DNA of 64,000 bases from Bacteroidales bacterium. Lineage in GTDB: Bacteria; Bacteroidota; Bacteroidia; Bacteroidales; GCA-2748055. This document shows positions 12,612 through 61,554 of the stretch, piece by piece (within the stretch, counting starts at the first letter, position 1; each line of letters begins with the position of its first letter). A program made the translations under genes and the position numbers. The notes beneath the pieces were generated by a model that was not told the origin of the DNA, did no database searches, and saw only the letters and a program-made list of their open reading frames with translations. The stretch covers positions 23,529 through 87,528 of the forward strand of contig JAFGWU010000014.1 in the NCBI GenBank assembly GCA_016936975.1, read 5' to 3'.

Positions 12612-12663
12612 ATGCACAGCCTGACAGGTCTTTGAACAGGAGGTCATCCGGTTAAGGTTTCAG

Positions 12664-14025: not shown

Positions 14026-14057
14026 AGTTCTTTCAATTTTCTGAAGTTGTCCGGCAT

Positions 14058-15449: not shown

Positions 15450-15695
15450 AACCTTCAGTTTTTGGTTTGGAGGAGATATTAAAGGTACGATAAATATAAT
15501 AAATTGGAGGAGAAGACACACTCCACAGGCTACAGGCTTCATCTGACCGGATTTGTTTTTTGTTGTTTATTTTTTTATTTATTTCACCTTTCTGTATATT
15601 TAAGGTTTCCGGATTGCTTCACAGCTATCAATAACTAAAGGGTAGTACTATTTCATCATACATTACTATGTAATACTAACTATAAAATAATCAAG

Positions 15696-18794: not shown

Positions 18795-18807
18795 TAACAA
18801 TCAGGAA

Positions 18808-20712
18808 ATGAAAAAGAACGTGAATCATATAATCGTAATATCAGCAACATTATTCATGATGTTGCTCGGGTCCTGTTCGCTGGATGAGTTCAATCCGTCT
18901 ACAGTGGACCTTGAAACCGCGTATACGGATCCCGATGGATTTGAAAGCCTGATAAACTATTGCTATGACGGCTTATACTATTTCTACGGAAAAATAGATG
19001 GCATCGGGATCATGGAGATGGGTACCGATCTCTGGTTTTCCGAGAGCAAGGAGAAGGGATTCTCTCAATACGGCAGCGATATGAGTACGGAAATGGGAAC
19101 ACTGAGGGTGTTCTGGCAGGGGTTTTATGCGACCGTTAATTACTGCAACATGGCCATTCATTACGCCGATAAGGTCGAGGGCTATACCGCGGAGGAGCGG
19201 GATGCCAAGGTGGCTGAAGCCTATTTTCTCAGGGGCTGGAGCAATCTGAATTTAGTCGAGCAATTCGGAGGTGTGGTTTTACGCACCGAACCGACCACCC
19301 TGACGGGTCCCGATAATTTCCCGAAACGCAGTTCGGAAGTTGATTTTTATGACCTGATCATTTCCGATTTGAAATTTGCCTGTGAACATTTGCCTTATGA
19401 CCAGGGTGCGGAACGCGGACGGGTCTCGAAAAAAGCAGCATACGGAATGCTCGCGAAAGCCTATCTGCAGAGAACACGGCTCGGGGAATCGGATGCATCC
19501 GACTATGCCCGTCTGGCCCTTGAAGCTGCCGAAGAGCTGATCAATAACCAGGGAGAATACGATATTGCACTCAACCTGAGTACCGATACCCAATCGGGCT
19601 ACTCCAAACTTTGGGATGGGGAGAATAATAAAACCAACAAGGAGTTCCTCTTTATTGAGGCAGTCGACCACGAAACCTTTTTAAATCCTGACGGGGACAA
19701 CCGCGGGCGCACACGTCAGTATTATTTGATGGACCTGAAGACGGTTGGGGCAGAGTGGGGAACCACCGAGAAGAACTGCTACTGGTACAGCCGGGCAAAC
19801 GACAGGGGATTTAAGCCGACCAAATACCTGCTGACTGAGGTTTTCGAACCAGTCCGGGATCCTGCAGATACCCGTTTTGAGGAAACATTCTTCACGCAAT
19901 ACTTCAACTCCAAATGGTCCGACCATGTTATCACCGAGGCACTGGCCACCAAATATGGCAAGGATCCGTCGGTCATCGGGGATACCATTAAAAATACGGC
20001 CGGCACTTATAATACCACAGATGAATATTATGGCGGAAAAAGTTATTACGGCATAAATGGTTCAGGCTGCGTCAATATGGTTGATGAAGACGGAGACGGA
20101 TACCTCGACGGTCTGTCGGTGTTCACGCCGAATTATACCATACCGGCCGGGGAGAAGACTATGATGCCGTTCCTCTGCGTGGACCCTTCAGATATGTTTG
20201 ATGCCCAGGGAAGGTGGGTTACCCCGTTAACAGAACCCCGCGGCACAGAGTATAAAGACTGTTATCCCTCCATGCGCAAATTTTCATCCCTTTACTGGAT
20301 CTATACAAATCAGAAATGGGAGGGCGATGTACCGATTCTGCGGTTGGGAGAGGTATACCTGATTGCCGCGGAAGCAGCTCTCCGGTACAACGGCGATCAG
20401 GGTAAGGCCGCCGGCTATGTGAATACCATCAGGCAACGTGCTGCCGTTACCGGACGGGCCGCCGGGATGACGGTTGATCCGTCAGAGGTGACGCTCGATT
20501 TTATTTTGGAGGAGAGGGCCCGTGAGCTGGCAGGAGAGCAGGTGAGATGGACCGACCTGAAACGGTTCGGCAAACTTTCCAGTGCCTATCTTTCAGAGAA
20601 GAATCCCGATATCATTGCCTTTGATGATAACAAGAATTCGTTGAGGCCCATTCCGCAGTCGTTCCTGGATGCCATTGCCAATCCGGAAGAGTTCGGAACG
20701 AATGGGTATTAG
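18808..20712 (+). CDS. susD: SusD/RagB-family nutrient-binding lipoprotein
   Basis: Start MKKNVNHI at 18808 with lipobox LLGSC. It sits immediately after susC. The C-terminal region ERARELAGEQVRWTDLKRFG is typical of SusD. Confidence 0.93.
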   Translation: MKKNVNHIIVISATLFMMLLGSCSLDEFNPSTVDLETAYTDPDGFESLINYCYDGLYYFYGKIDGIGIMEMGTDLWFSESKEKGFSQYGSDMSTEMGTLRVFWQGFYATVNYCNMAIHYADKVEGYTAEERDAKVAEAYFLRGWSNLNLVEQFGGVVLRTEPTTLTGPDNFPKRSSEVDFYDLIISDLKFACEHLPYDQGAERGRVSKKAAYGMLAKAYLQRTRLGESDASDYARLALEAAEELINNQGEYDIALNLSTDTQSGYSKLWDGENNKTNKEFLFIEAVDHETFLNPDGDNRGRTRQYYLMDLKTVGAEWGTTEKNCYWYSRANDRGFKPTKYLLTEVFEPVRDPADTRFEETFFTQYFNSKWSDHVITEALATKYGKDPSVIGDTIKNTAGTYNTTDEYYGGKSYYGINGSGCVNMVDEDGDGYLDGLSVFTPNYTIPAGEKTMMPFLCVDPSDMFDAQGRWVTPLTEPRGTEYKDCYPSMRKFSSLYWIYTNQKWEGDVPILRLGEVYLIAAEAALRYNGDQGKAAGYVNTIRQRAAVTGRAAGMTVDPSEVTLDFILEERARELAGEQVRWTDLKRFGKLSSAYLSEKNPDIIAFDDNKNSLRPIPQSFLDAIANPEEFGTNGY

Positions 20713-21941: not shown

Positions 21942-22403
21942 CTACCTCATGAATTTTCTCAGTAATTCAGAGCAGATACTGTATCCGTTTCGCCACTCAC
22001 TCTCCCTGGGGCCGGAAAAGTTGAGTATGGCAGGTTTGATCCGGTCGGTAAACTTGCGAAGCTTCATGGCTGCCTTTTCGGGGGTGTGAACCGACATATC
22101 AAGCAGGAGGAACGGCTTCCCTTCCTGACGTGTGAACATATAGGATTCCAGCGTGCCACCCTCCATCTCCTCCATGAAAATGATCACCGTGGCATCGCTT
22201 CCGATGACATTGGCCCGGGTGCGATCAAGATAATCACCACCCGGCAGTTCGGTGAGAGGATACTTTTTATCGATGATACCATCTTCGGCTTTCCGGTCCT
22301 GGGGACACCATCCGCCGCATTCCACACGATTTCCCAGGCAAAAATCGAGCACGGCCCTGTCGACGCCTGTCTGTCCCCCGGAAATGAGTTTTATTTTATC
22401 CAT
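21942..22403 (-). CDS. SLOG-superfamily protein of the YpsA / 'putative molybdenum carrier' type
   Basis: ISGGQTGVDRAVLDFCL...GGWCPQDRKAEDG resembles the PF12694-type motif as I recall it. It overlaps the upstream kinase gene by 13 nt. Confidence 0.6.
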   Translation of the reverse strand: MDKIKLISGGQTGVDRAVLDFCLGNRVECGGWCPQDRKAEDGIIDKKYPLTELPGGDYLDRTRANVIGSDATVIIFMEEMEGGTLESYMFTRQEGKPFLLLDMSVHTPEKAAMKLRKFTDRIKPAILNFSGPRESEWRNGYSICSELLRKFMR

Positions 22404-23314
22404 AATATGTCCCCGTCAAATTTTTCAGTCAGGAAATCAATGGCAGTTTCGTGGCAGATTCCCAACAGATAGCCTCCGCCGGAACCATTCAGCTTAAGAT
22501 AATATTCATTGCTGACCTGGCCCTCGATCCACGGATCCAGCATATGGTCGGGAATCATCTTCCTGAAATGGTTGTACTGAAAATCGGAAATCACCCGGAA
22601 AATTAGACCCGGGTCGGTTTTCTCCAATCCGAGAAGCGCATCGATCAGTCTTTGATTCATGCGTAGATACTCTTCCCTGATCCTTGTTTCAAACTTTTCA
22701 TCCTTCATTTGTTCGAGGAAATATCCAACCAGCGGAGCGGTATCAAACCGGGTATGCGAATCGAGAAGGAAAAACCGGTATTTCATGGGCAGGTCCGACA
22801 GGTCCAGCTTCACCTCTGTTATGGTTCCGTCTTCCCTGAAATAGAGCGGGGCTTTCCTGAAGCAGGTGAGGGCATCCACCCCGGAGCTTCTGCCATGGAA
22901 ATAGGATTCGATCAGCACCAGGTCATGTCGCTGTTCTTCCATCGTCAGGCTGTCGGAATACTCGAAAAACTGATTGTAAAGACAGGCTGCCAGGGCTCCC
23001 GAACTGCCCAGTCCGTATCCCTCGGGAATGCTCGATTCGTACCAGAGGTCACCTGAATACTCTTCAAAAAGTTTCTTATTAAATCTTGCTTTAAAATTAT
23101 CTTCCGGCAGCCGGACCAGGTAATGATATAGGTCCTGAACCGATTGATTGGAAATGGCGGCCTGCTCAGCCATACCTGGAGGGACTTCTTTCATCCGCCG
23201 TGGACGGGTGGTGAAAATCCCAAAGGGAATCGTAAGCGCGCTTCCACCCAGAATGACGCCGTACTCCCCTGTGAGCATGATTTTTGCAGGAAACAGGATA
23301 TTTTCAGAATTCAT
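22391..23314 (-). CDS. GHMP-family kinase (mevalonate kinase candidate)
   Basis: N-terminal KIMLTGEYGVILGGSALTIPF and GHMP motif PEGYGLGSSGALAACLY, in a mevalonate-operon context. Confidence 0.75.
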   Translation of the reverse strand: MNSENILFPAKIMLTGEYGVILGGSALTIPFGIFTTRPRRMKEVPPGMAEQAAISNQSVQDLYHYLVRLPEDNFKARFNKKLFEEYSGDLWYESSIPEGYGLGSSGALAACLYNQFFEYSDSLTMEEQRHDLVLIESYFHGRSSGVDALTCFRKAPLYFREDGTITEVKLDLSDLPMKYRFFLLDSHTRFDTAPLVGYFLEQMKDEKFETRIREEYLRMNQRLIDALLGLEKTDPGLIFRVISDFQYNHFRKMIPDHMLDPWIEGQVSNEYYLKLNGSGGGYLLGICHETAIDFLTEKFDGDILWIK

Positions 23315-23319
23315 AAATA

Positions 23320-24513
23320 TTATATTTTACGGGCATCAGTCCCGGTTCGTGAAGGACCGTTACCCATCCGGTCACTGATAAAATATCCGTTTTCACAGTA
23401 TGCCCTGAGATCTGATCCAATAAAAGCATCAATTTCTTTTGCATCTTCTTCAGCATAAATAAGGTGCACATTGGCTCCCGCATCCAGTGTGAACCCAACC
23501 CGGTGACCGGTCCCGTTCCTGTATTCCCTTACCAGGCTGATGATTTTTAGTGATTCGGGTTGCATCAGCAGATAGCCGGGCCGGCCGGTCATCATCATGG
23601 CATGAAGGGTAAGTGCTTCCGTTTCCAGGATTTCAATGAATCCCTTCCAGTCTCCTGAGGCAATGTATTCCTTCAGCAGGCTGAGATTTGTTCCTGCCTG
23701 TCTGAAACGTACCTCGGCGAAAGGGTTGTTTTGCATGAGGGCATGACCGGCACTGCTGGATACTTTTTTTGCACCCGACTCGACAATCAGAATCGTATCC
23801 CGGATCGCTCCCAGGTTCCGGTGAACAGGAATCACAGGAATAGCATATTCATTGCTCGAACCGGCCCACTCCTTGCTTTCCCCCCACAACGCCATGTTGC
23901 CGTATACCGACCGCGATGCACTGCCCGAACCCAGCCGTGCAATAAAAGAAGCCTTCCGAAAAAACCACTCTTCATCTTTAAGTGATGAACGGCCATCCTG
24001 AACTTGTTTCAGGATCTTCTTCGTTTCTTGGTTTGTCTTCCGTTCGGGGGCCTGTTTCAGGATCTGCTCCTCCATTTCGCACAGGCAAAGGGCAAGAGCT
24101 CCCATGGCCGATGCACTGGAGGCAATGCCGGAGGAGTGCGGAAAGCTGTTACGCGAATGAACCGTCAGTTCGGCCTGTTTGAGAAAAGGCAGATAAGCTG
24201 TAACCGCAGTGAGGACCTTCAGGATTCGCGCCTCAAAGTCGGGTGCCGGTTTTTTTTCAAAAAAGAAGCTGAGTCCGGTTTCTTTCCTGCCGGGATCAAT
24301 GCTATAATCCACCCGGGTTTCGGTTACGGCCTTATCGAGTGTGATGCTGAGGGAGGGATTCATTGGAATCTGAACCGGTCGTTTGCCCCAGTATTTGACG
24401 ATTGCAATATTCGAGGGACAGGTCCAGCCAACTGTTCCGGAGAGGGGGCCGATCCGTCCGGACGGAAAATCCTTCAGGGCGGCAACCAGTTCATCATGAT
24501 ACGACATTCCCAT
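23320..24513 (-). CDS. mvaD: Diphosphomevalonate decarboxylase
   Basis: PSNIAIVKYWGKR, SFPHSSGIASSASAMGALALCL and GSGSASRSVYG are typical MVD motifs. Confidence 0.9.
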   Translation of the reverse strand: MGMSYHDELVAALKDFPSGRIGPLSGTVGWTCPSNIAIVKYWGKRPVQIPMNPSLSITLDKAVTETRVDYSIDPGRKETGLSFFFEKKPAPDFEARILKVLTAVTAYLPFLKQAELTVHSRNSFPHSSGIASSASAMGALALCLCEMEEQILKQAPERKTNQETKKILKQVQDGRSSLKDEEWFFRKASFIARLGSGSASRSVYGNMALWGESKEWAGSSNEYAIPVIPVHRNLGAIRDTILIVESGAKKVSSSAGHALMQNNPFAEVRFRQAGTNLSLLKEYIASGDWKGFIEILETEALTLHAMMMTGRPGYLLMQPESLKIISLVREYRNGTGHRVGFTLDAGANVHLIYAEEDAKEIDAFIGSDLRAYCENGYFISDRMGNGPSRTGTDARKI

Positions 24514-25426
24514 GCTTTACCAGTTCGTTAAAGTTAAAAAGCACCCTGATTTTTTTCTTCTCCAGGTATTCTTTCAAAGATTCATGATCCCTGCCGGTTA
24601 CGATCATGACAAAGTCACCACCCCATGCGCCCAGGGACTTCACGTATCCGTCCAGGTCATTGAACAGGGTTTTCCCGACAGGCGTCAGGTTCAGCAGTTC
24701 AGAGAGTCGAGCCTCGTGGCGGGTCATATAATCTCCGAACTCATCGCGGTTGCCTGCATGAAGCATTCCCTCGGTCATCGCATCGAAAAATTCGATTGTC
24801 CGGTGGTCGGGGTCCAGGACGGATTGATAATGTTCAACGCTTTCATGAGAGTTTTGCTTTCTTCCGAGCCAGGCGAAGAAGATATTGTCTGAGAAGGCGG
24901 GAAGGAAGCTGACATGCCTGTACTGCGGGGCATCGTGTTTGATACGGTATACGATGGGTCCGCTGGCGATGGCGGTGGCGACATCATATCCGGATCCTGA
25001 AGAGATTTGCAGGTGCAGGTCGAGGGGGTTGAGTTCGGCCCACTCAGCGAGAAGGGCGGTAAGGGTCGAGCTGCTGCCAAGACCCCAGGAGGGATGGAAC
25101 TCGAGTTGGGTTTCAACATCCCAGGTAAAGAGCTCCTGCCGGAATGATGAGGAGAGTGTATCAAGGGTCTTTAGATAACCGGCCAGCTTTTCGGCTTTGG
25201 ATCGATCGGTTGTCTCTACGATCTCCAGGGTTGAAGAATTGAAAACGACCCGGAACCAGGGCCTGTTGAGATAGAAAGCCTCCCAGCAAAACAGCTTTTT
25301 TTGCCGTGCTGGTTTGAGATGGAGGGATTGTCCGACATGCAGGGGAAAGGAGAGGGCCTGGGCTCCGTACATTACCATGTACTCGGAGGAGATAAGCAGC
25401 TTGCCGTGGGCGTAAAATGGTTTCAA
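24494..25426 (-). CDS. GYDIA-type GHMP kinase (phosphomevalonate kinase candidate)
   Basis: GKLLISSEYMVMYGAQALSFPL, SWGLGSSSTLTALLAEW and SGSGYDVATAI (GYDIA-like motif). Confidence 0.75.
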   Translation of the reverse strand: MKPFYAHGKLLISSEYMVMYGAQALSFPLHVGQSLHLKPARQKKLFCWEAFYLNRPWFRVVFNSSTLEIVETTDRSKAEKLAGYLKTLDTLSSSFRQELFTWDVETQLEFHPSWGLGSSSTLTALLAEWAELNPLDLHLQISSGSGYDVATAIASGPIVYRIKHDAPQYRHVSFLPAFSDNIFFAWLGRKQNSHESVEHYQSVLDPDHRTIEFFDAMTEGMLHAGNRDEFGDYMTRHEARLSELLNLTPVGKTLFNDLDGYVKSLGAWGGDFVMIVTGRDHESLKEYLEKKKIRVLFNFNELVKHGNVVS

Positions 25427-25429
25427 GGT

Positions 25430-26761
25430 TTACCGGCTTTGGTTCCTCAGGATATTCAGATAATTCTCAACCGCGGAATGCGATACGGTTTTATCACCGA
25501 AATAGCGTTTTACCTCGTCTTTTTCCGGTTCTGTAGCTCCCAGCCGCTGCAAAATGTTGCTTAGATGCATTTTCATGTGTCCCTGCTGGATCCCTTTTGT
25601 GATCAGTGATCTTACGGCACTGAAGTTGTTGGCCAGCCCGGCCGCAGCAATGATCTCCATGAGGAGGCTGGCTCCCGGATTCCCGAGTATTCCCAGACTT
25701 ATTTTCGCCAGGGGATGCAATTCTGTTAATCCCCCGACTGTTCCCACGGCGAACGGAACTTTCAGGGTAAACCGGAACATTCCCTTTCTGACCGATGCTG
25801 CAGAAAGACTGGTATAGGAACCTTCATGGGAGGCATAGGCATGGGCACACGCCTCCACCGCCCTGAAATCGTTGCCGGTTGCAATCACCACGGCATCCAT
25901 GCCGTTCAGGATCCCCTTGTTGTGCGTAACAGCCCTGTATGCATCCTTTTGTGCGATATTCACCGCCAGAGCAAATTTTTCTGCAAAAGCAGATCCGTTG
26001 AGATTGTCATCGAGCCGGTCGAGTGCTTTGACAGGTGCCTCCACATAACATTCAACAAGCGATTCGGGTGTGTAGTTGGAGAGAATAGACATGATGATGG
26101 TTAATTCACCTTTGATCCCCGCAGACCGGGTCTCCCGGGTAACCAGATCCTTCCATGCTTTTGCAAGTTCTTCCAACACGGAGTTGATGAAATTGGCCCC
26201 CATGGCATCGGCCGTATGGAAGTTCACAAAGAGCTGAAAAAAAGATGGAATTCTGTCGGTTTTATCCAGGAGGCGGAGTTCGCGTATGCCCCCTCCGCGT
26301 TTTTCCATCCTTTCGGTAAGGAAAGATACTGACTTCAGCAGGTTTTCCCTGTTCCGTTCGAAAAGGTTGTAAAGACTCGCGCCGTCACCGGTCCATCGGA
26401 AATGCACCTGGCCAACCTTGAGCCGGTCCACGACTTTTACATGAAATCCCCCATTCATGGCCCAGAAGCGGGCTGCAGAGGCGGCGGCAGCTACCACGGA
26501 GCTCTCTTCGATAACCATTGGCACCGTATAAAGATGTCCGTTCACCAGGAAGTTGGGAGCCAGTCCATAAGGTAAAAAGTAGTTGGATATGGTATTTTCA
26601 CTGAATTCCTCATACATCCCCTGAAGCAGGGGGTCAGGATGCAGATGGGAGTTCAGCACCCTGGCCAGATCTTCGGCTTCCTTATTCTGGTCGGCCAGCC
26701 ACTGAATTTTCTCACTCCTGGAAAGTTTGGAGAAACCTTTGACAATCGGGGGCAGTTTCAT
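25430..26761 (-). CDS. mvaA: Hydroxymethylglutaryl-CoA reductase, class II
   Basis: ENTISNYFLPYGLAPNFLVNGHLYTVPMVIEESSVVAAAS parallels class II HMGR (P. mevalonii type). The likely start is MKLPPIV at 26761; the track ORF starts at 26791. Confidence 0.9.
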   Translation of the reverse strand: MKLPPIVKGFSKLSRSEKIQWLADQNKEAEDLARVLNSHLHPDPLLQGMYEEFSENTISNYFLPYGLAPNFLVNGHLYTVPMVIEESSVVAAAASAARFWAMNGGFHVKVVDRLKVGQVHFRWTGDGASLYNLFERNRENLLKSVSFLTERMEKRGGGIRELRLLDKTDRIPSFFQLFVNFHTADAMGANFINSVLEELAKAWKDLVTRETRSAGIKGELTIIMSILSNYTPESLVECYVEAPVKALDRLDDNLNGSAFAEKFALAVNIAQKDAYRAVTHNKGILNGMDAVVIATGNDFRAVEACAHAYASHEGSYTSLSAASVRKGMFRFTLKVPFAVGTVGGLTELHPLAKISLGILGNPGASLLMEIIAAAGLANNFSAVRSLITKGIQQGHMKMHLSNILQRLGATEPEKDEVKRYFGDKTVSHSAVENYLNILRNQSR

Positions 26762-26765
26762 GTGT

Positions 26766-27767
26766 CTATTCTTTGATGGTGAGGTAGGCATATGCCATTT
26801 CCAAACCTTGTACCTGGTTCATAACAAAGTTACGAAGTTGTTCATAATCTCCCCTGGCGTATTTTAAAAAAGTGGAAGCCATTCCGTAAATGGCCGGCAG
26901 CTGAGACTTCCGGATGAGGTAATAACCATCGAGGAAGGTTTTTATTCCTCCTGAAACTATGAGTTCCCTGCACATTGGTTTCTCTTCCTGGATGATCCGG
27001 TTGACATAACCAACCATGGAGGCGGGATCCTCGCCGATAAGGGATAATGGTTCAAAGTGTTCCTTTTTGGCACGATCGTCCCGGAGAAGTTCAACCCTGG
27101 CGAAGTTGGTGCCACCGAATCCTCCGAACTCAATCGCCTGAAGGGGCAACTGCAACAAGCTCCGGAGGCTTTCAGGCCCCATTCCCTGGCCGACCTCTTT
27201 CACAATCACCGGAAAGGAAAACCGGTCCAGGAATCTTCGGAGGGTTTCTACCGGCGGATGGGTAAAGATATCTCCTTCAGGTTGAAACCACTCCTGGATC
27301 GGATTGATATGAACGACGAGTCCGTCGGCTTCCAGCTCCCTGACCAGATCAACGGCTTTGGATACCTGGTTACGTTCCAGAAGCTCCTCGATCTGTGCAA
27401 TCCCCAGATTGGCGTAGAAGGGGAGGTCGCCACCAATGATCCGCCGCATATTGAAATCATCGAAATAGGTTTTATCCTCCATGATGATTCGGCAGGAACC
27501 CAGACCCATGCCCATTCCGAACTCATTGCAGGCCATCGCCAGGTTACGGTTAATGATGCCCGCCAATTTTGTTCCGCCGGTCATACTGCTGATCCATAAC
27601 GGGGCACGGTGTGTCTTTCCAAGGAAGGTAAAAGGTTGAAGGCCATTCCGGGGATGTTCCCGGAGAACGGGCTCATAGTGGAACCGGTTATCCAGTTCCG
27701 GCAAACCGGCCTGGGATTTAAAAGCCAAATCGATGTGGTCCTTTTTTCGGTTTTCAAGCGTTTCCAT
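26766..27767 (-). CDS. fni: Type 2 (FMN-dependent) isopentenyl-diphosphate delta-isomerase
   Basis: RKKDHIDLA, the SSMTGG motif, TIM-barrel-like length (333 aa) and a mevalonate-operon context. Confidence 0.9.
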   Translation of the reverse strand: METLENRKKDHIDLAFKSQAGLPELDNRFHYEPVLREHPRNGLQPFTFLGKTHRAPLWISSMTGGTKLAGIINRNLAMACNEFGMGMGLGSCRIIMEDKTYFDDFNMRRIIGGDLPFYANLGIAQIEELLERNQVSKAVDLVRELEADGLVVHINPIQEWFQPEGDIFTHPPVETLRRFLDRFSFPVIVKEVGQGMGPESLRSLLQLPLQAIEFGGFGGTNFARVELLRDDRAKKEHFEPLSLIGEDPASMVGYVNRIIQEEKPMCRELIVSGGIKTFLDGYYLIRKSQLPAIYGMASTFLKYARGDYEQLRNFVMNQVQGLEMAYAYLTIKE

Positions 27768-27776
27768 ATCCGGGGA

Positions 27777-28928
27777 TTATCGAATGCCAAGGTGACGGGA
27801 GATAACCAGGCGGAGGATTTCCGAGGTGCCTTCCCCGATTTCCAGGATCCTCTGATCGCGGTAAAACCGCTCAATGGGGTTCTCCTTCATCAATCCGTGT
27901 GCGCCATGAATCTGAAGGGCTTCATTTACGACTTCGCGTGCGATTTCCGATGTATAGAGCTTGGCCATGGCAGCCTCCTTGGCAAAAGGGTGATGGTGAT
28001 CCTTGAGCCAGCACGCTTTGTAGAGAAGGTTGCGGGCAAGTTCAATTTTTGTAGCCATATCTGCCAGCTTGAAACTGTTTATCTGGAAACTCCGGATGGG
28101 CTTGCCAAACTGGATTCGTTTGGAAGCATACTGCATTGCCATTTCAAAGGCGCCCTGGGCAAGACCCAGTCCCATGGCGGCAATGGAGAGCCTGCCGCCA
28201 TCAAGTGTGGCCAGCATGATCTTCGAACCCTTTCCGCGCTCTCCCAGGATATTCTCTTCAGGGACCTTCACATTGTCCAGGAATACCCTGCCGGTGTCTG
28301 CTGCACGCCACATCATCTTGGTAGTGATCAGCTCTGTACTGTAACCGGGCGTCTCCCTCGGGACAAGAATCACCGAGAGCTCCTTCCTTCCGTCGCCTTT
28401 GTCCCCGGTCACCGCCTGAACAGTGATCCCTCCGGCCATCGGGGAACCGACATTTGTGATATAAATTTTCCGGCCGTTGATAATCCAGATTCCATCCTTC
28501 AGTTCAGCAGTCGTTTCGGTATTGTTGGAATCGGAACCGGCATTGGGTTCGGTCAGTCCGAAGGCCCATAGCTTGTTCCCGGCGGTAAGCATGGGCAGAA
28601 ATCGTTTTTTCTGATCCTCGGTACCATACTGGTAAATCGGGGCAAGACCCAGGGAGTTGTGGGCTGCAACCGTTGCGGCCTGGGAACCGTCAACCCGTGC
28701 CAGCTCTTCAACAGCAATGATATAGGAGAGGGTGTCGAGTCCGATTCCGCCGTACTCCTCGGGAAGGTTAATGCGCAACAATCCCATTTCAAACATTTTC
28801 CTGGTAAGGTGTTCTGAAAAAGTGCCCGTCTCATCGAGTTCTGCAGCCAGGGGTTTAATTTCACTCTCGGCAAATTTCCTGACACGTTCCCTCAATTCCC
28901 GGTGTTTGTCGTTCAGCAATGGTTCCAT
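27777..28928 (-). CDS. liuA: Acyl-CoA dehydrogenase (isovaleryl-CoA dehydrogenase by context)
   Basis: 383 aa with typical ACAD features (GLTEPNAGSD, C-terminal YRDQRILEIGEGTSEI). It sits adjacent to the MCC subunits. Confidence 0.8.
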   Translation of the reverse strand: MEPLLNDKHRELRERVRKFAESEIKPLAAELDETGTFSEHLTRKMFEMGLLRINLPEEYGGIGLDTLSYIIAVEELARVDGSQAATVAAHNSLGLAPIYQYGTEDQKKRFLPMLTAGNKLWAFGLTEPNAGSDSNNTETTAELKDGIWIINGRKIYITNVGSPMAGGITVQAVTGDKGDGRKELSVILVPRETPGYSTELITTKMMWRAADTGRVFLDNVKVPEENILGERGKGSKIMLATLDGGRLSIAAMGLGLAQGAFEMAMQYASKRIQFGKPIRSFQINSFKLADMATKIELARNLLYKACWLKDHHHPFAKEAAMAKLYTSEIAREVVNEALQIHGAHGLMKENPIERFYRDQRILEIGEGTSEILRLVISRHLGIR

Positions 28929-28935
28929 AGAGATT

Positions 28936-30939
28936 TTATGAATTAAAGGTTATTAAAAGTTTGTTGATTTCAACCTGTTCTCCTGCCGAAACATGTATTT
29001 CTTTTACTGTCGTATCCCGGGGAGAAACAATCTTGTTTTCCATTTTCATGGATTCGATAATTAGGAGGGTATCCCCTTTCATCACCTCATCACCGTTCTT
29101 CACATTGATCTGAACCACCTTCCCGTGGAGCGGTGCGGTGATCCTGCTTACATCAGTTTCTTCAGATGCCTTTCCGGTGCGGGAGAGATACCGGCTGTCG
29201 GGCATATCCAGTCTGCGAACCCTGAACAGCTGACCGTCAGGGTCCAGGTAAATATCCGACCGGTCGGTTACTCCCCAGACTTTTATCAACTGGTCATCCA
29301 TCCTGATCCAGTAGAGGTTTCCGACGGCCCGCTCCAGTGAAATATTCAGCAAACGGTCGTTCATCAGGAGTTCCATCCTTTCCCTGCCCTTTTTTAATTC
29401 ATATCCGATTCGATACTGTTTATGGTTGTGCTCCAGGATAATTTCGGGCGCCATGCGCCAGTGTCCGATCTGATGCCACGGGGATAGATCCGGCAGGTCA
29501 TCCCGGAAGGTGTTCCGGAGACTGATGAAGGCGGCGATGGAGAGGATCGTTTCGACGGACCAGAGGGTTCTGGCTCTTTCGATGCCGGAAAGGATCGTTT
29601 CCAGCTCGCTGTCGAGGTATTTTGTATGAATGGTGTTGCGGGAAAAATCGTCGGAACGGAGCAATTCAATAAGGAAATCCCGGTTGGTGGTCAATCCTGT
29701 TATCCTGTAGTCTTTCAGGGCTCTGATAAGGTGGTTCCTGGCATCGTCGCGATTACTTCCTGAAACAATCACCTTGGCAATCATCGGATCGTAGTAGGGC
29801 TCTACAAGGTTGCCTTGGGCATATCCCGAATCGATCCTCACCCAGCTGCGAACCGGTTCTTCAAGGAGGTCAATGCGTCCTGTTGAGGGCATGAATCCCT
29901 TCACGGGATCTTCAGCGTAAAGCCTTGCCTCAATGGCATGTCCCTTCCGGACAATATCCTCCTGCGAGAAAGAGAGCGGATAACCCTCTGCAATATTGAT
30001 CTGTTCCTTGACCAGGTCGATGCCGGTGACCATTTCCGTTACAGGATGCTCCACCTGTATGCGGGTATTCATCTCCAGGAAGAAAAATTCCTGGTTACCG
30101 TCGACCAGGAATTCAACGGTTCCTGCACCTGTATAGCTTATCTGGCGTACCAGCCTGATGGCACTTTCCGTGATCTTCTCCCGGGTTTCCCGGGCGAGGA
30201 AGGCCGACGGGGTTTCCTCAATGATTTTCTGGTACCGGCGCTGGAGGGAGCACTCCCTCTCATAGAGGTGAACTGCGTTGCCATGCTTGTCGGCGATCAC
30301 CTGTACTTCGATGTGCCTTGGTTTTTCAAGATACTTTTCAAGGTAGAGCTCCGGGGAACCGAAATAACTCAACGATTCACGGCCGGCCTCTTCAAGGGCG
30401 GGCCCAAGCTCTTCCGGGGAACGTACCACCCGCATCCCTTTTCCGCCACCTCCCCCGGAAGGCTTCACAAGGAGAGGGTAGGAGTAAGTTTCCTTATGGC
30501 TGAGCAGCGACTGGGAGGAACCATGATAACCCTGTAAAACAGGCACTCCCGATTTCTCCGCACTATTTCTTGCATTTGACTTATGCCCCATCAGGTCTAT
30601 AACATCCGGTGAAGGGCCGATAAATTCAATACCTGCATCGCGACAGGCCATTGCGAAGGCAGCGTTCTCTGAAAGAAACCCATAACCCGGGTGAATGGCA
30701 TCAACATGGGCGTCACGGGCAATCCTGATGATTTTTTCAATATTCAGGTAGGTATCCGACAGGGATCCTTCGCCAAGAGGGAAGGCCTCATCTGCCATGG
30801 TCACAAAGGGTAGGTCGCGGTCATAACGGGAATGAATCACTACAGCGAGTTTGTCGAGTTCCCTGATGGCGCGGATGATGCGTACCGCAATCTCGCCACG
30901 ATTGGCAATGAGTATCTTATGAAATTTTTTCCTATTCAA
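28936..30939 (-). CDS. liuD: Methylcrotonyl-CoA carboxylase alpha subunit (biotin carboxylase plus biotinyl domain)
   Basis: KILIANRGEIAVRIIRA, an ATP-grasp region and a C-terminal ESMKMEN biotinylation motif. There is no in-frame ATG near the conserved N-terminus. A TTG at 30939 overlapping the upstream stop is the plausible start; the track ORF runs to 31014. Confidence 0.85.
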   Translation of the reverse strand: MNRKKFHKILIANRGEIAVRIIRAIRELDKLAVVIHSRYDRDLPFVTMADEAFPLGEGSLSDTYLNIEKIIRIARDAHVDAIHPGYGFLSENAAFAMACRDAGIEFIGPSPDVIDLMGHKSNARNSAEKSGVPVLQGYHGSSQSLLSHKETYSYPLLVKPSGGGGGKGMRVVRSPEELGPALEEAGRESLSYFGSPELYLEKYLEKPRHIEVQVIADKHGNAVHLYERECSLQRRYQKIIEETPSAFLARETREKITESAIRLVRQISYTGAGTVEFLVDGNQEFFFLEMNTRIQVEHPVTEMVTGIDLVKEQINIAEGYPLSFSQEDIVRKGHAIEARLYAEDPVKGFMPSTGRIDLLEEPVRSWVRIDSGYAQGNLVEPYYDPMIAKVIVSGSNRDDARNHLIRALKDYRITGLTTNRDFLIELLRSDDFSRNTIHTKYLDSELETILSGIERARTLWSVETILSIAAFISLRNTFRDDLPDLSPWHQIGHWRMAPEIILEHNHKQYRIGYELKKGRERMELLMNDRLLNISLERAVGNLYWIRMDDQLIKVWGVTDRSDIYLDPDGQLFRVRRLDMPDSRYLSRTGKASEETDVSRITAPLHGKVVQINVKNGDEVMKGDTLLIIESMKMENKIVSPRDTTVKEIHVSAGEQVEINKLLITFNS

Positions 30940-31720
30940 TCCAGTTTGGTTTTCGTTTTTCCAGGAAGGCAAGCATCCCCTCCTGTCCTTCCGGTGAGGT
31001 GCGGAACCCGGCAATCAGCTGGGAGGTATCCTCCGGAAGATCTTTGTTGCCGGGATCTTTTTCGATGTACCGGATCAGTTCCTTGACCCCGGAGAGTGCG
31101 GAAGGGCCGCTTGTTTTCAAAATGGCAATCAATCTCTCGAGCGCCTGGTCCAGCCCGCCCGGCTTACAGAGCTGGTGGATGAGTCCGATCTCAAAAGCTT
31201 CAATAGCATCAAACCTGCGCCCGGTAAGCATCAGTTCCCGTGCCCTGCTGCTTCCTGTTTTCCTGATAATATGGGGCGCAATGGTTGCAGGAATCAGACC
31301 AAGCTTTACCTCAGAGAATGCAAAGGTGGCAGTGTCGTCGGCAAAGGCAATATCACAAGCCGCAATAATACCGTTGGCCCCGCCCATTACCTTTCCGTGA
31401 ACGGCACATACCGTAACCTTACTGCACTCATAAATGCGCGCAAAGAGACCAGAAAGCTCCATGCTTTCGGAGACCAGCTGGTCATGCGGTTGATTCAGGC
31501 CCGTCTTCATCCAGTTCAGATCCGCACCCGAACAGAAATGCTCCCCTTCCGACCGGATAATGATCATGCGGATTTCGGGATCCCTGTTAAATTCCTGGAT
31601 CACAGAGGATATTTCCCGAATCATTTCAAGGTTCAGGGCGTTGAAAACGGCAGGCCGATCCAGTATTATGGATGCGACCCGGTTCTTGACGGAGATCTTT
31701 ATGGTCTGGAAACGGTTCAT
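30932..31720 (-). CDS. liuC: Enoyl-CoA hydratase family (methylglutaconyl-CoA hydratase by context)
   Basis: Crotonase fold (ILDRPAVFNALN, FCSGADLNWM). The likely start is MNRFQT at 31720, directly after the upstream stop. Confidence 0.8.
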   Translation of the reverse strand: MNRFQTIKISVKNRVASIILDRPAVFNALNLEMIREISSVIQEFNRDPEIRMIIIRSEGEHFCSGADLNWMKTGLNQPHDQLVSESMELSGLFARIYECSKVTVCAVHGKVMGGANGIIAACDIAFADDTATFAFSEVKLGLIPATIAPHIIRKTGSSRARELMLTGRRFDAIEAFEIGLIHQLCKPGGLDQALERLIAILKTSGPSALSGVKELIRYIEKDPGNKDLPEDTSQLIAGFRTSPEGQEGMLAFLEKRKPNWIE

Positions 31721-31721
31721 T

Positions 31722-33329
31722 TTACATCCTGTATATACCCACCCGGGGTTCTTCAAATTTTTTATTCAGAGACATAGAAATGGCCAGGGCGATAATTCTT
31801 CTTGTATCCTTCGGATCGATTATTCCATCGTCCCATAACCTCGAGGTACTGTAATAGGCTGAGCCCTCTTTTTCGTATTTTTCGAGAATCGGTTTCCTGA
31901 TGGCCTTTCGCTCTTCATCGGAAAGTGTTTTTCCCTGTTCCCTTAACTGGTCTTCCTTGATGGTGGCAAGCACATCAGCTGCCTGCTCCCCCCCCATGAC
32001 ACTGATTTTTGCTTCCGGCCACATGAATAGCAATCTTGGTTCATAGGCCCGTCCCGACATGGCGTAATTGCCCGCCCCGAAAGAGCCCCCGAAAATAACG
32101 GTGAACCTTGGTACGCGGGTATTGGCTACGGCATGAACCATCTTTGCGCCGTCCTTGGCAATCCCCTCCTGTTCATAATCCTTCCCCACCATGAAACCAG
32201 CAATGTTCTGGAGAAACAGAATTGGAATTCCCCGGTGATTGCAAAGCTCAACAAAGTGGGTTCCCTTGAGGGAGGATTCACTGAAGAGGATGCCGTTATT
32301 GCCGATAATGCCGACCGGGAAGCCCATAATGCGCGCAAATCCCGTAACAAGGGTGGTCCCATAGTTCTGTTTAAATTCAGAGAATTCACTCCCGTCGACG
32401 ATCCGTGCAATTATTTCCCTCACATCCACCGGTTGCCGGAAACTTTCCGGCAGGATCCCGTAAAGCTCATCAGGATCATAAAGCGGGTCTTTTACAGGGG
32501 AACGATCCATACTCTGCCTTTGGGGAATCTGAATGGTTTCAAAAATATCCCGGCAGATTTGCAGTGCATGCTGGTCACTCTCCGCAAGATGGTCTGCAAC
32601 ACCCGATTTCGTTGTATGTACCAGGCCTCCTCCCAGCTCCTCCGCAGTGACCTCTTCACCGGTGGCCGCTTTAACAAGCGGTGGCCCCCCGAGGAAAATG
32701 GTTCCCTGATCCTTCACGATAATGGTCTCATCACTCATGGCCGGGACATAAGCCCCGCCGGCTGTGCATGAACCCATGACTATGGAGATCTGGGGAATAC
32801 CGGTGGCCGATAAGCGGGCCTGGTTGTAAAAAATCCTGCCGAAATCATCCCGGTCAGGAAATACATCAGCCTGGTTCGGAAGAAAGACACCACCCGAATC
32901 AACAAGGTAAATACAGGGTAATCCGTTTTGCATGGCTATCTCCTGGGCACGGAGATGCTTTTTGATTGTTTCCTCAATGTAGGTCCCACCTTTAACGGTC
33001 GCATCATTGGCCACAATCATGACTTCCTTTCCCTGAATAAGTCCGATACCTGTAACAATACCGGCCGAGGGGAACTGGTTGTCGTACTGACCGAAGGCGG
33101 CAAGGGATGAGAGCTCGAGAAATGGGGTGTTGGGATCGACCAGCATGTTTATGCGATCCCGCACGAGCAACTTACCTCTTCTGGTATGCTTTTCCCGCGC
33201 GCTCTCCGGCCCCCCCATGCTCACCTCCGAAAGTCGTTTCTTTAACAGGTTCACCGACGCTGTATAACGGTTCTTTCGTGACTTGAATTCTTCTGAAGAG
33301 GTATCGATTTTAGAAACCAAGGTTTTCAA
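31722..33329 (-). CDS. liuB: Methylcrotonyl-CoA carboxylase beta subunit (carboxyltransferase)
   Basis: [32 protein letters not shown] and [12 protein letters not shown] are typical of MCC beta / acyl-CoA carboxyltransferase. Confidence 0.88.
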
Positions 33330-33563
33330 TGCAGTCCGGGTTCAGTTCAGTTCTTAATAACAGAAATGAATCAGTTTTGTTTAAAAGTCAGTCCTGAAAT
33401 TAAAACAAAAAGAAGCTTTGCTGATTCAACGCGATAAGTTACATCATATAAAATTTGCATCAAAATATTACACAGCATAGTTCTGGCACTATTCCCCGCC
33501 GTCCGGCAATGTCTGTGCTTACATGTTCCCCTGTGGCAGTCACGGGAGAGTTTCCGGTAAAAA

Positions 33564-33571
33564 TAATTTTG
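33564..33571 (+). promoter_or_regulatory. Candidate -7 box (TAATTTTG) in the AT-rich divergent control region
   Basis: Exact TAnnTTTG match 118 nt upstream of the ATG at 33689. Motif match only. Confidence 0.3.
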
Positions 33572-33688
33572 TTAAATTAAATGCCACACAGAGTCAAAAT
33601 GTGGCTCAGTATTGTAAAATATGTAATTTGATGGCAATGCTTTATATTACAGCATTTATTGTAACTTGTTCGCATTAATTAAAATTGA

Positions 33689-35782: not shown

Positions 35783-38700
35783 ATGACACCGAAAAACCCG
35801 TTTCCCGGATTACGACCCTTCACACTGGAAGAAGCCAATCTTTTTTTCGGTCGTGAAAAACAGGTCAGGGCAGTACTGAAACTGCTTAATTCCAATGGGA
35901 TCGTGTTCGTTACAGGCGTACCGGGAATCGGTAAGACATCTCTGGTCCAATGCGGAGTAGCTCAGGAGTTTTTGAAAACGGCGGGTGAATCGGCCAGAAT
36001 TATCAGCTTCTGCCCGGGGGTCGATCCGATAAGGAGCCTGGTGGATGCGTTTATGAAAAATTTCCCCGGCAAAATCGGGGCAATGGAGGATGTAGTATTG
36101 CTGAATGGGGATGTGACATTGGAATCCTGGCTTAAAGAACACGATCTTATGCATTTCAATTTTCTGCTGATCATCGATAAATTGGAGGAGATATTCAGGG
36201 ATGCTACATTACACGATACAAAGACCGGGGATAACCGGGTGAAAAGATTTGTTGATCTGATTTCCGGGGCAGTTCATGTGCCGGAGCATAAAATCCGGGT
36301 GGCAATTACAATACGGTCGGAAAGGATTGGAGAGTGTTCCGCCTGCAGTGAACTAACCGGTTTGCTCAACAGGAGCCATTATATGTTACCGGTGATGACC
36401 CGTGATAATTACAGGGAGGTCATTGAAGGTCCTTTAAAACAGGCCGGTGTTTCCATAGATGGGAATCTGCTCACACAATTACTGGATGAGACGGGAGAAT
36501 TTGTCAACCGGCTTCCCATGCTCCAGCATGCCATGATGCGGACATTTGATCACTGGAAGGTCCAGAATAAACCTTCAAAGCCATTGTCTGTTATAAATTA
36601 TGAGTCCACCGGAACGCTTCTCAAGGCAGTTTCCCAACATGCTGATGAGGCCTTTTCCGAACTGGGAGAGAAGCAAAAGGAAATCTGCCAGATCTTCTTT
36701 AAAACAATAACGGAAAAAAACGGGGTTGCTGAAGGAATCAGCAGGCCGGCCACTATCGGGAAGATTGCCGGTATTGCTCAATGTGCAACAGAAGAGGTTA
36801 TCGGGGTTGTAAATCATTTCAGGTCGGAGGGAAGAATCTTTTTAACCCCCTGTCATCCTCAGAAATTACTGCCTGCAAGTACAGTTGATCTTTCCCATGA
36901 GTTATTGATGCAATATTGGGATAAATTACGGTTATGGGTTGAGGAGGAGGCCTCATCGGTAGCGATGTACAGGAAACTGGTTAAAGCCTCCGCACTTTAT
37001 CAGGCCGGCCGGATCGGACTGCTGAGGCCGCCCGACCTCGATCTTGCCCTGAGGTGGAAAGAAGAACAAAAACCCCGGCTCGAATGGGCCGCTCAATACA
37101 ATCCGGCCTTTGAGCGGTCGATGCTTTATCTGAACCTGAGTCAGGAAGAATATTTAAAGGAGCAAAATAAAGCGGTCAGATTGCAGAAGAGGAAGTTAAG
37201 GATGCCGCTCATTATTACAGGTGTGGCAGGCATTATGGCAGTGACAGCAACCGGCTTGTTTTTCGGGACCAGGGAAGGATCCAGGCAGGTCGAGGTGGCT
37301 TCAAATGTGGGGGCACCCTCTTTGGAGACTCCGGAACCGGTCGGATTCGAAGCTGAAGTTTTTCCGGAAGATACTTTGCTGTCCACGGCAACAACTCTGG
37401 AAAACCGGGAGCCTGAACAAAGGGAAGAAGAACCTGATTCCCGGCAGGAATCCACTCTCCGGGAAAATATTGAACAGGAGAGAAGGGAGGTCAGGATTGC
37501 AAGGACGACCTCACAGGAAGCCCGCCGCCAGCAGCAGGTCGCTGCACAGAATGAACAGGCCGCGGTTGAGCAGATGGAACAGGCGGAGACGGAACGGCAG
37601 AGAGAATATCGTAACAGGCTCATCTCAAAAGCTAAATCCATTGCTGTGAGATCACTCCAGTTGAGCGACGATCCGGACCTGCAGGCATTGCTTGCTGTTC
37701 AGGCTTACCGGTTTAACTCGGAAAACGGGGGATACCGTTATGATGCCGACATATACCGGGGGCTGTACAACGCCCTTAAAAGCAAAATTTCAGACGGCTA
37801 TAATGTGTATAGCGGACATAACTACTCCGTCAGGTCCCTTGCGTGGTATAAGAGAAGAAATGGATTTCTGAGCGCCGACAGCCAGGGAAAAATTCTCTTC
37901 ATGTCCGGCGATTTTCGGAATAACAGGTCCAATTCGTTAATCGCCAATACCGGGCACGTCAATGAAGCAGTCGCAATCAGCCCTGATGAAACCCTTTTTG
38001 CCTGCGGGACAGATGGTGGGGGATTATATGTTTTTCAGATGTCGGACCCCTCGGAGAATTACAGCTTCAGGGAAGCCCACGGGGGGAAAGTGCAGATGCT
38101 TGCATTCTATGATAGCGGGAGGAGACTGGTTTCTGCCGGAGCTGATAACACAATCATGAAATGGAATCTCAACAGCCGGACGGGAGAGTTATTCGCTCAG
38201 CTAGAATCCAGGCCGACATCAATGGCTGTCTCAAATGCTTTAACGCACCTGGTCGTTGGAACAAGAGACGGAAAACTGGTGGAGTACCTTTTCGAAAATC
38301 CGGGTGATGGAAGGATTTTATACCATAACTCCGGAAATCCGGTCATGGCCGTAACATATAGTCCCAATGACAATCAGGTCGTCATTGGAACGCTGGATGG
38401 ATCGGTAAGGATAATCAACCGAAGCAATATATCTTCTGTGATAACCGTAAAGGGGCCGGAAGCACGGGTAACTGATCTGGCTTACAGTAATAACGGAAAA
38501 TTCCTGGCTGCTGCCTCGCATGATGGCAATGTTTACCTCTGGGAAACATCTGATTGGAACGAACAACCGGTAGTGGTGGGAGATAACCAGGGATTTGTAC
38601 TGACCCTCTGTTTCAGCGATGACAGCCGGCATTTCTACAGCGGAAGCACAAAAGCCCCATTGCTGATTGGAAGGCCCGTGGAATCTTCCCTGATGGTGAA

Positions 38701-46786: not shown

Positions 46787-46906
46787 GATCTGTTCTAAAT
46801 TTGCCGGGATAAAGATAGGAAGTTTATCAACATGAATAAAAAAGCTGCCCCTCATGACGGAGCAGCTTTCATAAAAGCACAATCTGAACTGAACGAACTT
46901 TAACTT

Positions 46907-51484: not shown

Positions 51485-51605
51485 AGGTAACGATTTTTAG
51501 TCATTTCAATTTTGTAAATTGCCAAACAAACTGCTTTCTGAATGACATAACATTGAGAATCTGTATTTGTTTCGACTGTCACTCGGGAAAATCAAAAATT
51601 GTACC

Positions 51606-59343: not shown

Positions 59344-59363
59344 TACCTGTAAAATAAAACACT

Positions 59364-60995: not shown

Positions 60996-61014
60996 GCACA
61001 TTAATGACTGAGTA

Positions 61015-61257: not shown

Positions 61258-61353
61258 ATGTTAAAAAACATAAAAAAGTGTTAAAAGAATCTGTTTTATA
61301 CAACAAAATCTTTCCCTGAAAGTTATTTATTTTGAAAGTAATTGTTGGGGTGC

Positions 61354-61543: not shown

Positions 61544-61554
61544 ACATAATGTAA

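Follow-up and report, generated by a model that had tools for sequence, protein, structure and literature searches.

The 64,000-nucleotide stretch analyzed here (the window) comes from an uncultured Bacteroidales bacterium (contig JAFGWU010000014.1, positions 23,529 to 87,528). In it, the block of genes from 33329 to 22391 on the minus strand probably constitutes one operon for making isoprenoid precursors out of isovaleryl-CoA. This block joins genes of the leucine/isovalerate utilization (liu) type to a 3-hydroxy-3-methylglutaryl-CoA (HMG-CoA) reductase (HMGR) and the lower part of the mevalonate (MVA) pathway. It is not a canonical Liu cluster, as it has no orthologue of isovaleryl-CoA dehydrogenase (IVD), no HMG-CoA lyase, and no LiuR, nor is it a complete classical mevalonate cluster, as thiolase and HMG-CoA synthase (HMGS) are missing; it is a conserved hybrid. 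The fused operon is genomic evidence for a putative leucine shunt into the mevalonate pathway.

The minus-strand run from 33329 to 21942 consists of ten consecutive open reading frames (ORFs). These encode, in order, the beta subunit of 3-methylcrotonyl-CoA carboxylase (MCC), a LiuC-type enoyl-CoA hydratase, MCC alpha, an acyl-CoA dehydrogenase (ACAD), a type 2 isopentenyl-diphosphate isomerase (IDI-2), a class II HMGR, a GYDIA-family kinase, a diphosphomevalonate decarboxylase-like protein (MDD), a second GHMP kinase, and a cpYpsA/SLOG protein. The same ten genes are present in GenBank under the consecutive accessions MBN2697504 to MBN2697513 (locus tags JXR52_01655 onward), with none called in between. 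The junctions, computed with the most plausible start codons, were +1 nt (MCC beta/hydratase), −8 nt (hydratase/MCC alpha, with the uncertain TTG start at 30939), +7 nt (MCC alpha/ACAD), +9 nt (ACAD/IDI-2), +4 nt (IDI-2/HMGR, with the ATG at 26761, which is also the GenBank start), +3 nt (HMGR/GYDIA kinase), −20 or −14 nt (GYDIA kinase/MDD), +5 nt (MDD/second GHMP kinase), and −13 nt (second GHMP kinase/SLOG). An earlier note on this DNA had described ten same-strand ORFs with junctions of −20 to +9 nt, and both coordinates and gaps were reproduced. Its ten-gene unit was retained in part: all ten genes are present, but the SLOG gene lies outside the conserved unit, which extends from MCC beta to the second GHMP kinase and comprises 8-9 genes.

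In the proposed route, isovaleryl-CoA would be supplied by leucine through transamination and oxidative decarboxylation, by the keto acid from leucine biosynthesis, or by external isovalerate; the supplying genes are not encoded in the 64-kb window. The ACAD would convert isovaleryl-CoA to 3-methylcrotonyl-CoA, and MCC (alpha plus beta), using biotin, ATP, and bicarbonate, would convert this to 3-methylglutaconyl-CoA. The hydratase would then form (S)-HMG-CoA, the enantiomer used by HMGR. In place of cleavage by a lyase, HMG-CoA would be reduced to mevalonate by HMGR, after which the two divergent GHMP kinases and the MDD would yield isopentenyl diphosphate (IPP), to be interconverted with dimethylallyl diphosphate (DMAPP) by IDI-2. 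Going by family assignments, a putatively complete set of enzymes leading from isovaleryl-CoA to HMG-CoA adjoins HMGR, and no lyase is among them. We infer which substrate the ACAD uses, which way the flux runs, and how much of the cell's HMG-CoA would come by this route. The earlier note had likewise placed the conversion of isovaleryl-CoA via HMG-CoA and mevalonate to IPP/DMAPP in one unit, and this predicted route gains strength from the clade-wide tight linkage described below.

The family assignments that had been made for all ten genes were each reproduced by Pfam, NCBIfam, and PDB-sequence comparison. The first gene of the operon (31722..33329, minus strand, TTG start) encodes a LiuB-like carboxyltransferase, MCC beta, of 535 aa, a length equal to that of its homologues in relatives. 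It matched Pfam Carboxyl_trans with 516 bits and, among PDB sequences, human MCCB with 727 bits and Pseudomonas aeruginosa MCC beta with 708 bits, compared to 460 bits for the beta subunit of geranyl-CoA carboxylase (GCC) and less than 290 bits for propionyl-CoA carboxylases (PCC). The LiuD-like MCC alpha (28936..30939, minus strand; start uncertain, with TTG at 30939, 30972, or 31014) has the layout biotin carboxylase (BC), BT domain, and biotin carboxyl carrier protein (BCCP), with the Pfam domains Biotin_carb_N, CPSase_L_D2, Biotin_carb_C, and Biotin_lipoyl, and its translation shows the biotinylation motif ESMKME (MKM). Its alignments with human MCCA (494 bits over residues 5-665) and with the alpha subunit of P. 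aeruginosa MCC (480 bits) extended over the full length, while PCC alpha matched the BC domain only. Judged by these scores, beta and alpha are clear MCC orthologues, neither PCC nor GCC. A biotin protein ligase gene (BPL_LplA_LipB) is located at 51567-52340 (plus strand), 18 kb from the operon; biotinylation of MCC would need such an enzyme.

The enoyl-CoA hydratase of the LiuC/AtuE type (30932..31720, minus strand) lies between the two MCC genes, a position that is constant in relatives. It matched Pfam ECH_1 with 163 bits, and its top NCBIfam models were PRK07468 (219 bits) and PRK05674, gamma-carboxygeranoyl-CoA hydratase (216 bits), below the respective cut-offs of 350 and 426; the PDB matches include the P. 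aeruginosa AtuE-type structure 4zu2. The protein is deduced to be a putative 3-methylglutaconyl-CoA hydratase.

The ACAD (27777..28928, minus strand) is the sole real departure from the canonical Liu enzyme identities in the upper part of the block. Four ACAD Pfam domains were found, and the best PDB match was the butyryl-CoA dehydrogenase (Bcd) of Clostridium difficile (5ol2, 369 bits), followed by short-chain acyl-CoA dehydrogenases (SCAD, ~314 bits) and IVD (225-235 bits). In a gapless alignment with human IVD (1IVH), of which the human fragment was confirmed to be exact, the catalytic Glu254 corresponds to Gly245, Gly374 to Gly365, and Ala375 to Glu366. The ACAD is thereby not of the LiuA/IVD type, which is marked by Glu254 and Gly374-Ala375. 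As read from this alignment, it keeps the catalytic base (Glu366) of SCAD and medium-chain acyl-CoA dehydrogenase (MCAD), sharing with IVD just the equivalent of Gly374. This position is occupied by glycine in the ACAD and by tyrosine in MCAD and other ACADs, and the glycine in IVD is reportedly considered to make room in the pocket for the 3-methyl branch, giving branched-chain specificity. Among the 86 ACADs that are at least 60% identical, 83 have the motif IGEGTSE and the other 3 have VGEGTSE, so that the glycine occurs in 86/86; two more distant, unlinked ACADs from the same loci have YEGT instead. The ACAD is also the best-conserved gene of the block, with 78-85% identity in close relatives; an identical copy was found on one 3.9-kb Logan contig only. 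From gene context and this one motif, the protein is probably a non-orthologous isovaleryl-CoA dehydrogenase, and it would define a distinct ACAD subfamily (IGEGTSE).

For the lower half of the route, IDI-2 (26766..27767, minus strand; type 2 IPP isomerase in GenBank) scored 196 bits with TIGR02151 (cut-off 281), its PDB matches were exclusively IDI-2 structures, and in many loci of Bacteroidota and Bacteriovoracaceae its gene precedes HMGR. The class II HMGR (25430..26761, minus strand; 443 aa) is 100% identical to GenBank MBN2697508 and gave 277 bits with Pfam HMG-CoA_red and 251 bits with TIGR00532 (cut-off 260); the best PDB match was 7n7s (463 bits), and all matches were class II HMGRs. 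The alignment columns of residues K282, D298, and H395 are invariant, and by reference to the enzyme of Pseudomonas mevalonii these three would be the catalytic Lys, Asp, and His. The GYDIA-family GHMP kinase (24494..25426, minus strand) scored 290 bits with NF040656, above the cut-off of 225, and had weak PDB matches, to mevalonate kinases; its gene follows HMGR in nearly all of the 80 genomes surveyed. By family membership it is one of the two divergent Bacteroidota mevalonate/phosphomevalonate kinases. The MDD (23320..24513, minus strand) contains the Pfam domains MVD-like_N and MDD_C, scored 146 bits with TIGR01240 (cut-off 171), and matched only MDDs in the PDB. Relative to a 55%-identical homologue (locus L002), it carries a 24-aa Lys/Glu-rich insertion at residues ~150-185. 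The last conserved gene of the block (22391..23314, minus strand) encodes the second GHMP kinase, which is weakly mevalonate-kinase-like: it has the Pfam domain GHMP_kinases_N, scored 72 bits with TIGR00549 (mevalonate kinase), below the cut-off, and matched 2x7i and 2oi2 at an E value of ~1e-7. Its position downstream of MDD is kept in relatives. Weak kinase matches are to be expected because the Bacteroidetes kinases are so divergent that they were found only in 2017 (PMC6107057).

The operon is predicted to be a single, co-transcribed unit. The earlier note had allowed for an internal promoter or terminator that would split the liu from the mva part. In consensus scans, terminator-like sites were at background (17 versus 18.1 expected from shuffles) and no convincing sigma-70-type promoter was found inside the block. 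A single −7 motif of the Bacteroidetes type (TAACTTTG; 26825-26832, minus strand) is contained in the 3' end of the IDI-2 gene and begins the 64 nt that lead up to HMGR. It was rejected as an internal promoter because the −7 motif occurs at chance in the window (32 versus 31 expected) and the site is not conserved. In relatives, the motif was present upstream of HMGR in 1/40, of IDI-2 in 1/28, and of MCC beta in 1/20, which leaves the conservation test with little power. Upstream of the operon lies a divergent intergenic leader of 359 nt (33330..33688), presumed to be the promoter region. No Rfam element was detected in the window or in the leader, the leader folded no better than shuffles (z = −0.66), and the strict Bacteroidetes −7 motif TAnnTTTG was absent from its operon strand, with one copy on the opposite strand (33564-33571).

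The fusion was found to be conserved in relatives. A first relative on JGI contigs, with an HMGR of 61% identity, has the order MCC beta-hydratase-MCC alpha-ACAD-HMGR-GYDIA-MDD-GHMP. The neighborhoods of Bacteroidota HMGR genes, which the earlier note had put forward as informative, were surveyed by running an HMGR alignment against GTDB species, each represented by one genome, and searching the resulting 80 loci by tblastn with the ten window proteins. The best HMGR among these species representatives was 59% identical. The full liu-mva fusion recurred in 4 of the 80 loci, all in metagenome-assembled genomes (MAGs) of Bacteroidia/Bacteroidales. Two further loci, from cultured Ancylomarina genomes, have ACAD-IDI2-HMGR-GYDIA-MDD-GHMP with no MCC at the locus, and in the remaining 74 the usual HMGR-GYDIA(-MDD-GHMP) core stands by itself or together with IDI-2, with nothing leucine-related attached.

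An ACAD-seeded scan of metagenomes produced another 80 loci, in which ACADs of at least 60% identity with room to check the neighbor were counted. In the 66 informative loci, the gene downstream of ACAD was IDI-2 (44), HMGR (8), HMG-CoA-lyase-like (5), or other (9); IDI-2 or HMGR thus followed directly in 52/66. MCC alpha was upstream of ACAD in 47 of 57 checkable loci. The median gap in relatives was 12 nt from ACAD to IDI-2 (n = 42) and 20 nt from ACAD to HMGR (n = 12). Since the flanking genes vary from locus to locus, the block itself is the conserved unit, and its recurrence in dozens of independent relatives takes the arrangement well beyond chance. All MVA-linked ACADs formed one clade in a neighbor-joining tree (no bootstrap), within which IDI-2 appears to have been lost several times. 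The Ancylomarina ACADs are nested inside this fused clade, and MCC was therefore probably relocated or lost in that lineage. These two loci (L041, 7690-14367, from Ancylomarina euxinus M1P, and L047, from an Ancylomarina sp.) stem from cultured Marinifilaceae-type isolates and have unrelated housekeeping genes upstream of ACAD. In two close relatives, a Vut_1 gene ("putative vitamin uptake transporter") immediately precedes MCC beta in the same orientation (L090, 4673-5458; L096, 4790-5575, with a gap of 5 nt in the latter).

A sister clade shows other combinations of the same module. In one form (L115, L116, L123, L128, and L129), MCC beta-hydratase-(MCC alpha)-ACAD is followed by a gene whose product had HMG-CoA lyase as its best model (157-199 bits, below cut-off), and in L129 (3628-15030) this lyase-like gene is followed by an unambiguous acetoacetate-CoA ligase (941 bits). 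By its gene content this form is the textbook catabolic ending. The earlier note had placed HMGR where the lyase would be, and in the sister clade the lyase-like gene indeed sits exactly at the IDI-2/HMGR position. A second lyase-like paralogue was observed ~3 kb downstream in L128 and L129. In the other form (L131, L133, L134, L136, L165, and L166), an archaeal-type HMGS (536 bits, above cut-off), a thiolase, and a DUF35 protein are inserted between MCC alpha and ACAD; the clusters span 2540-12198 in L133 and 2719-13863 in L165, an NCBI Bacteroidales MAG. As annotated, this form encodes two HMG-CoA routes side by side. The cluster of L133 is followed by a UbiA prenyltransferase. As the module is paired with a lyase, an HMGS, or HMGR plus the lower pathway, it was deduced to make HMG-CoA, the fate of which would be decided by the downstream gene. 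This contrast with the sister clade is the strongest argument that in the clade of the window the HMG-CoA is destined for mevalonate. In L167/L168 (10001-16497), HMGS-thiolase-DUF35 is directly followed by a three-subunit biotin carboxylase (BC of 461 aa, carboxyltransferase of 576 aa, and BCCP of 195 aa), of which the carboxyltransferase is only 31% identical to MCC beta of the window.

The absence of HMG-CoA lyase and synthase, as claimed in the earlier note, held for the operon, the window, and the fused loci; related Bacteroidales do carry an archaeal-type HMGS. No lyase-like domain was found among the ten operon proteins by Pfam and NCBIfam, and tblastn with human HMGCL (an unverified query sequence) or the lyase-like proteins of L129 gave no match in the 64-kb window. 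HMGS, lyase, and thiolase were likewise absent from the operon, the window, and the retrieved flanks of every fused locus. Near the HMGR genes, a search for HMGS, lyase, and thiolase motifs by regular expression found nothing, and tblastn with human HMGCS1, HMGCL, and Escherichia coli AtoB (all unverified query sequences) found one thiolase only, in L017. A search with the archaeal-type HMGS of L133 returned 8000 matches, the top 120 of which were all at least 78% identical.

These results bear on the rival explanation that has most in its favor, namely, adjacency without metabolic coupling, in which the liu genes serve leucine catabolism with a lyase encoded elsewhere, the mva genes are fed by an archaeal-type thiolase/HMGS encoded elsewhere, and the two share a locus or promoter. 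We consider this unlikely. It would be consistent with the wide distribution of archaeal-type HMGS in Bacteroidales/Bacteroidota MAGs, where it stands beside the same liu module in sister-clade genomes, with most Bacteroidota MVA clusters having no neighboring liu genes, and with the search of the source genome having covered the 64-kb window. Mere adjacency is at odds, however, with a linkage that is kept down to ~61% ACAD and ~47% HMGR identity, with junctions of ~12-20 nt and unrelated flanks. Furthermore, the catabolic form of the module has its lyase and acetoacetate-CoA ligase inside the cluster, whereas no lyase, HMGS, or thiolase was present in the retrieved flanks of the fused loci.

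Several observations weigh against the route as proposed. The hydratase, HMGR, IDI-2, MDD, and second kinase all score below their NCBIfam equivalog cut-offs. The ACAD is nearer to butyryl-CoA dehydrogenases than to any characterized IVD, and its presumed substrate rests on context and a single motif. A few relatives have a gap of >100 nt at ACAD/IDI-2 or ACAD/HMGR, which could hold internal promoters, and in Ancylomarina ACAD-IDI2-HMGR is retained but MCC is missing from the locus. Bacteroidales/Bacteroidota MAGs commonly encode a highly conserved archaeal-type HMGS, so that a copy elsewhere in the genome is quite possible; a lyase or HMGS outside the searched 64 kb is also possible. Should these genomes prove to encode HMGS, the finding would reduce to a supplementary feed under common regulation, interesting but modest. 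A further-reaching version of the proposal, that ACAD, MCC, and hydratase have replaced the thiolase/HMGS upper pathway in this clade, with all isoprenoids (undecaprenyl phosphate and menaquinone) made from isovaleryl-CoA and CO2, is offered as a tentative suggestion that we rather doubt. If true, it would represent an HMGS-independent entry into the mevalonate pathway in one operon and could explain the reports of mevalonate-pathway Bacteroidota that have no HMGS (PMC12016392).

A second alternative is that the carboxylase, hydratase, and ACAD act on another branched or terpenoid acyl-CoA, for example in a geranyl-CoA/Atu-like pathway or one for a different short acyl-CoA, so that the link to HMG-CoA would be only apparent. 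The hydratase does score equally on the gamma-carboxygeranoyl-CoA hydratase model, below its cut-off, and the ACAD may have another specificity. We nevertheless regard this as very improbable, since the substrate-setting beta subunit is closer to MCC (727 and 708 bits) than to GCC (460 bits), the alpha subunit can be aligned with MCC alpha throughout, and the same module is paired in relatives with an HMG-CoA-lyase-like gene or HMGS. The least credible alternative is a reverse flow as in the myxobacterial Aib route, in which dehydration, decarboxylation, and reduction of HMG-CoA would yield isovaleryl-CoA for the priming of iso-branched fatty acids (which Bacteroidota make) with the Bcd-like ACAD as reductase; the nearest solved relatives of the ACAD are indeed butyryl-CoA dehydrogenases working reductively in anaerobes, and the Rex, flavodiiron, and ADP-forming acyl-CoA synthetase proteins encoded in the window are markers of an anaerobe, but the carboxylase is an MCC orthologue with a complete ATP-grasp BC domain and not a decarboxylase, the operon has neither an AibA/AibB-type CoA-transferase-like decarboxylase nor HMGS, the sister cluster with lyase and acetoacetate-CoA ligase runs catabolically, and the irreversible kinases and decarboxylase would pull HMG-CoA toward IPP.

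The proposed route from isovaleryl-CoA to IPP was compared to known systems. The liuRABCDE genes of P. aeruginosa are a leucine/isovalerate utilization cluster with LiuA, the LiuE lyase, and the LiuR regulator. The order MCC beta-hydratase-MCC alpha in the window is that of liuB-liuC-liuD, an ACAD is part of both clusters, and the chemistry from isovaleryl-CoA to HMG-CoA would be the same. The ACAD of the window, in contrast, is Bcd/SCAD-like and comes after the MCC genes rather than before them, and the operon, with neither LiuE nor LiuR, runs on into HMGR and the lower mevalonate pathway. No MerR-type LiuR regulator is encoded in the operon, and the adjoining genes are for a methyltransferase and a HEAT-repeat protein.

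With the mevalonate cluster of Bacteroidota, the operon shares its HMGR-GYDIA-MDD-GHMP genes, their order, and an IDI-2 gene ahead of them, an arrangement found in most of the 80 genomes surveyed; it differs in the four liu-type genes fused upstream, which are found in the window operon and one clade. It was in Flavobacterium johnsoniae that Hayakawa et al. (2017; cited in PMC6107057) identified the kinases of this Bacteroidota cluster. A "leucine shunt" into mevalonate has been demonstrated by labeling in Halobacterium salinarum and Leishmania mexicana (reviewed in PMC8791446) and in Trypanosoma brucei (PMC5993337). In both the shunt and the proposed route, leucine would pass by way of isovaleryl-CoA and HMG-CoA into the MVA pathway, bypassing acetyl-CoA, but the shunt is known from labeling and has dispersed genes; the papers found describe it neither for Bacteroidota nor as an operon dedicated to it in bacteria, the form predicted for the window.

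The nearest operon-level precedent is that of Myxococcus xanthus, in which the aib operon (aibR, aibA/B/C, and mvaS) and liuC convert HMG-CoA to isovaleryl-CoA (PMC5389471). Both link HMG-CoA with isovaleryl-CoA at the level of an operon and with a methylglutaconyl-CoA hydratase. The direction is opposite, however, and aib uses HMGS, a CoA-transferase-like decarboxylase, and a reductase where the window has MCC and ACAD. Counterparts of the AibA/AibB decarboxylase, the AibC reductase, and MvaS were absent, as no CoA-transferase domain, short- or medium-chain dehydrogenase/reductase (SDR/MDR) domain, or HMGS domain was found among the ten proteins by Pfam and NCBIfam. The thiolase/HMGS/DUF35 proteins form a channeling complex in archaea. 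This archaeal-type module likewise supplies HMG-CoA for mevalonate and lies inside the same liu cluster in the sister-clade Bacteroidales; it is absent from the window and all retrieved fused loci, where the liu module takes the position of the "upper pathway."

A liu-mva transcription unit, which was also new to the earlier note, is not described in the full-text literature searched, a coverage that most subscription journals fall outside of. A 2011 survey left MCC undetected in Bacteroidetes (PMC3199775). A comparative study of 2025 reported Flavobacterium species with a mevalonate pathway but no HMGS and called for the missing enzyme to be found (PMC12016392), and an older annotation study had the mevalonate pathway otherwise complete in Flavobacteriaceae (PMC4026382); the route proposed here would be a candidate answer to the puzzle of the Flavobacterium species. 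Modified mevalonate pathways are an active topic in which the known variation has so far been in the lower half, and the operon would vary the upper half. In anaerobic Bacteroidales that degrade peptides and polysaccharides, the supply of isoprenoids for the cell wall carrier lipid and quinones would come to depend on branched-chain amino acids or isovalerate. The operon would also offer, ready for use and in natural form, the genes for a leucine shunt; according to a 2021 review, this shunt had not been engineered (PMC8791446).

The last of the ten genes (21942..22403, minus strand) encodes a circularly permuted SLOG protein, cpYpsA (Pfam PF12694, 146 bits), which is annotated as "putative molybdenum carrier protein" in GenBank. 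It overlaps the stop codon of the second GHMP kinase gene by 13 nt, which suggests translational coupling. No homologue was found by tblastn (E ≤ 1e-3) in 84 related loci, and the gene was deemed specific to this genome. For want of a homologue in related loci, its membership in the pathway, by way of isoprenoid-derived cytokinin-type chemistry through its LOG relationship, was dropped.

The flanks of the operon are unrelated to it, with a SusC/SusD polysaccharide locus (glycoside hydrolases GH106 and GH88) and a methyltransferase on one side and a HEAT-repeat protein and STAND NTPase on the other. The polysaccharide utilization locus (9279-20712) encodes a GH106 alpha-L-rhamnosidase, a beta-propeller/lyase-like protein, a GH88 protein, and a SusC/SusD pair, which suggests the use of pectin or a rhamnogalacturonan-type glycan. 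On the opposite flank, an nSTAND1 NTPase and WD40 repeats are fused in a protein of 1007 aa (35783-38806, plus strand). After it come an outer-membrane beta-barrel protein and a protein of 1513 aa with a type IX secretion system (T9SS) tail. Further away, the region 58666-63627 (plus strand) holds genes for a Rex-like redox repressor, a DUF4139/4140 protein, and an ADP-forming acyl-CoA synthetase, and a flavodiiron protein is encoded at 45572-46882 (minus strand). The Rex-like repressor, flavodiiron protein, ADP-forming acyl-CoA synthetase, and T9SS-tailed proteins of the window fit an anaerobic, fermentative member of the Bacteroidota.

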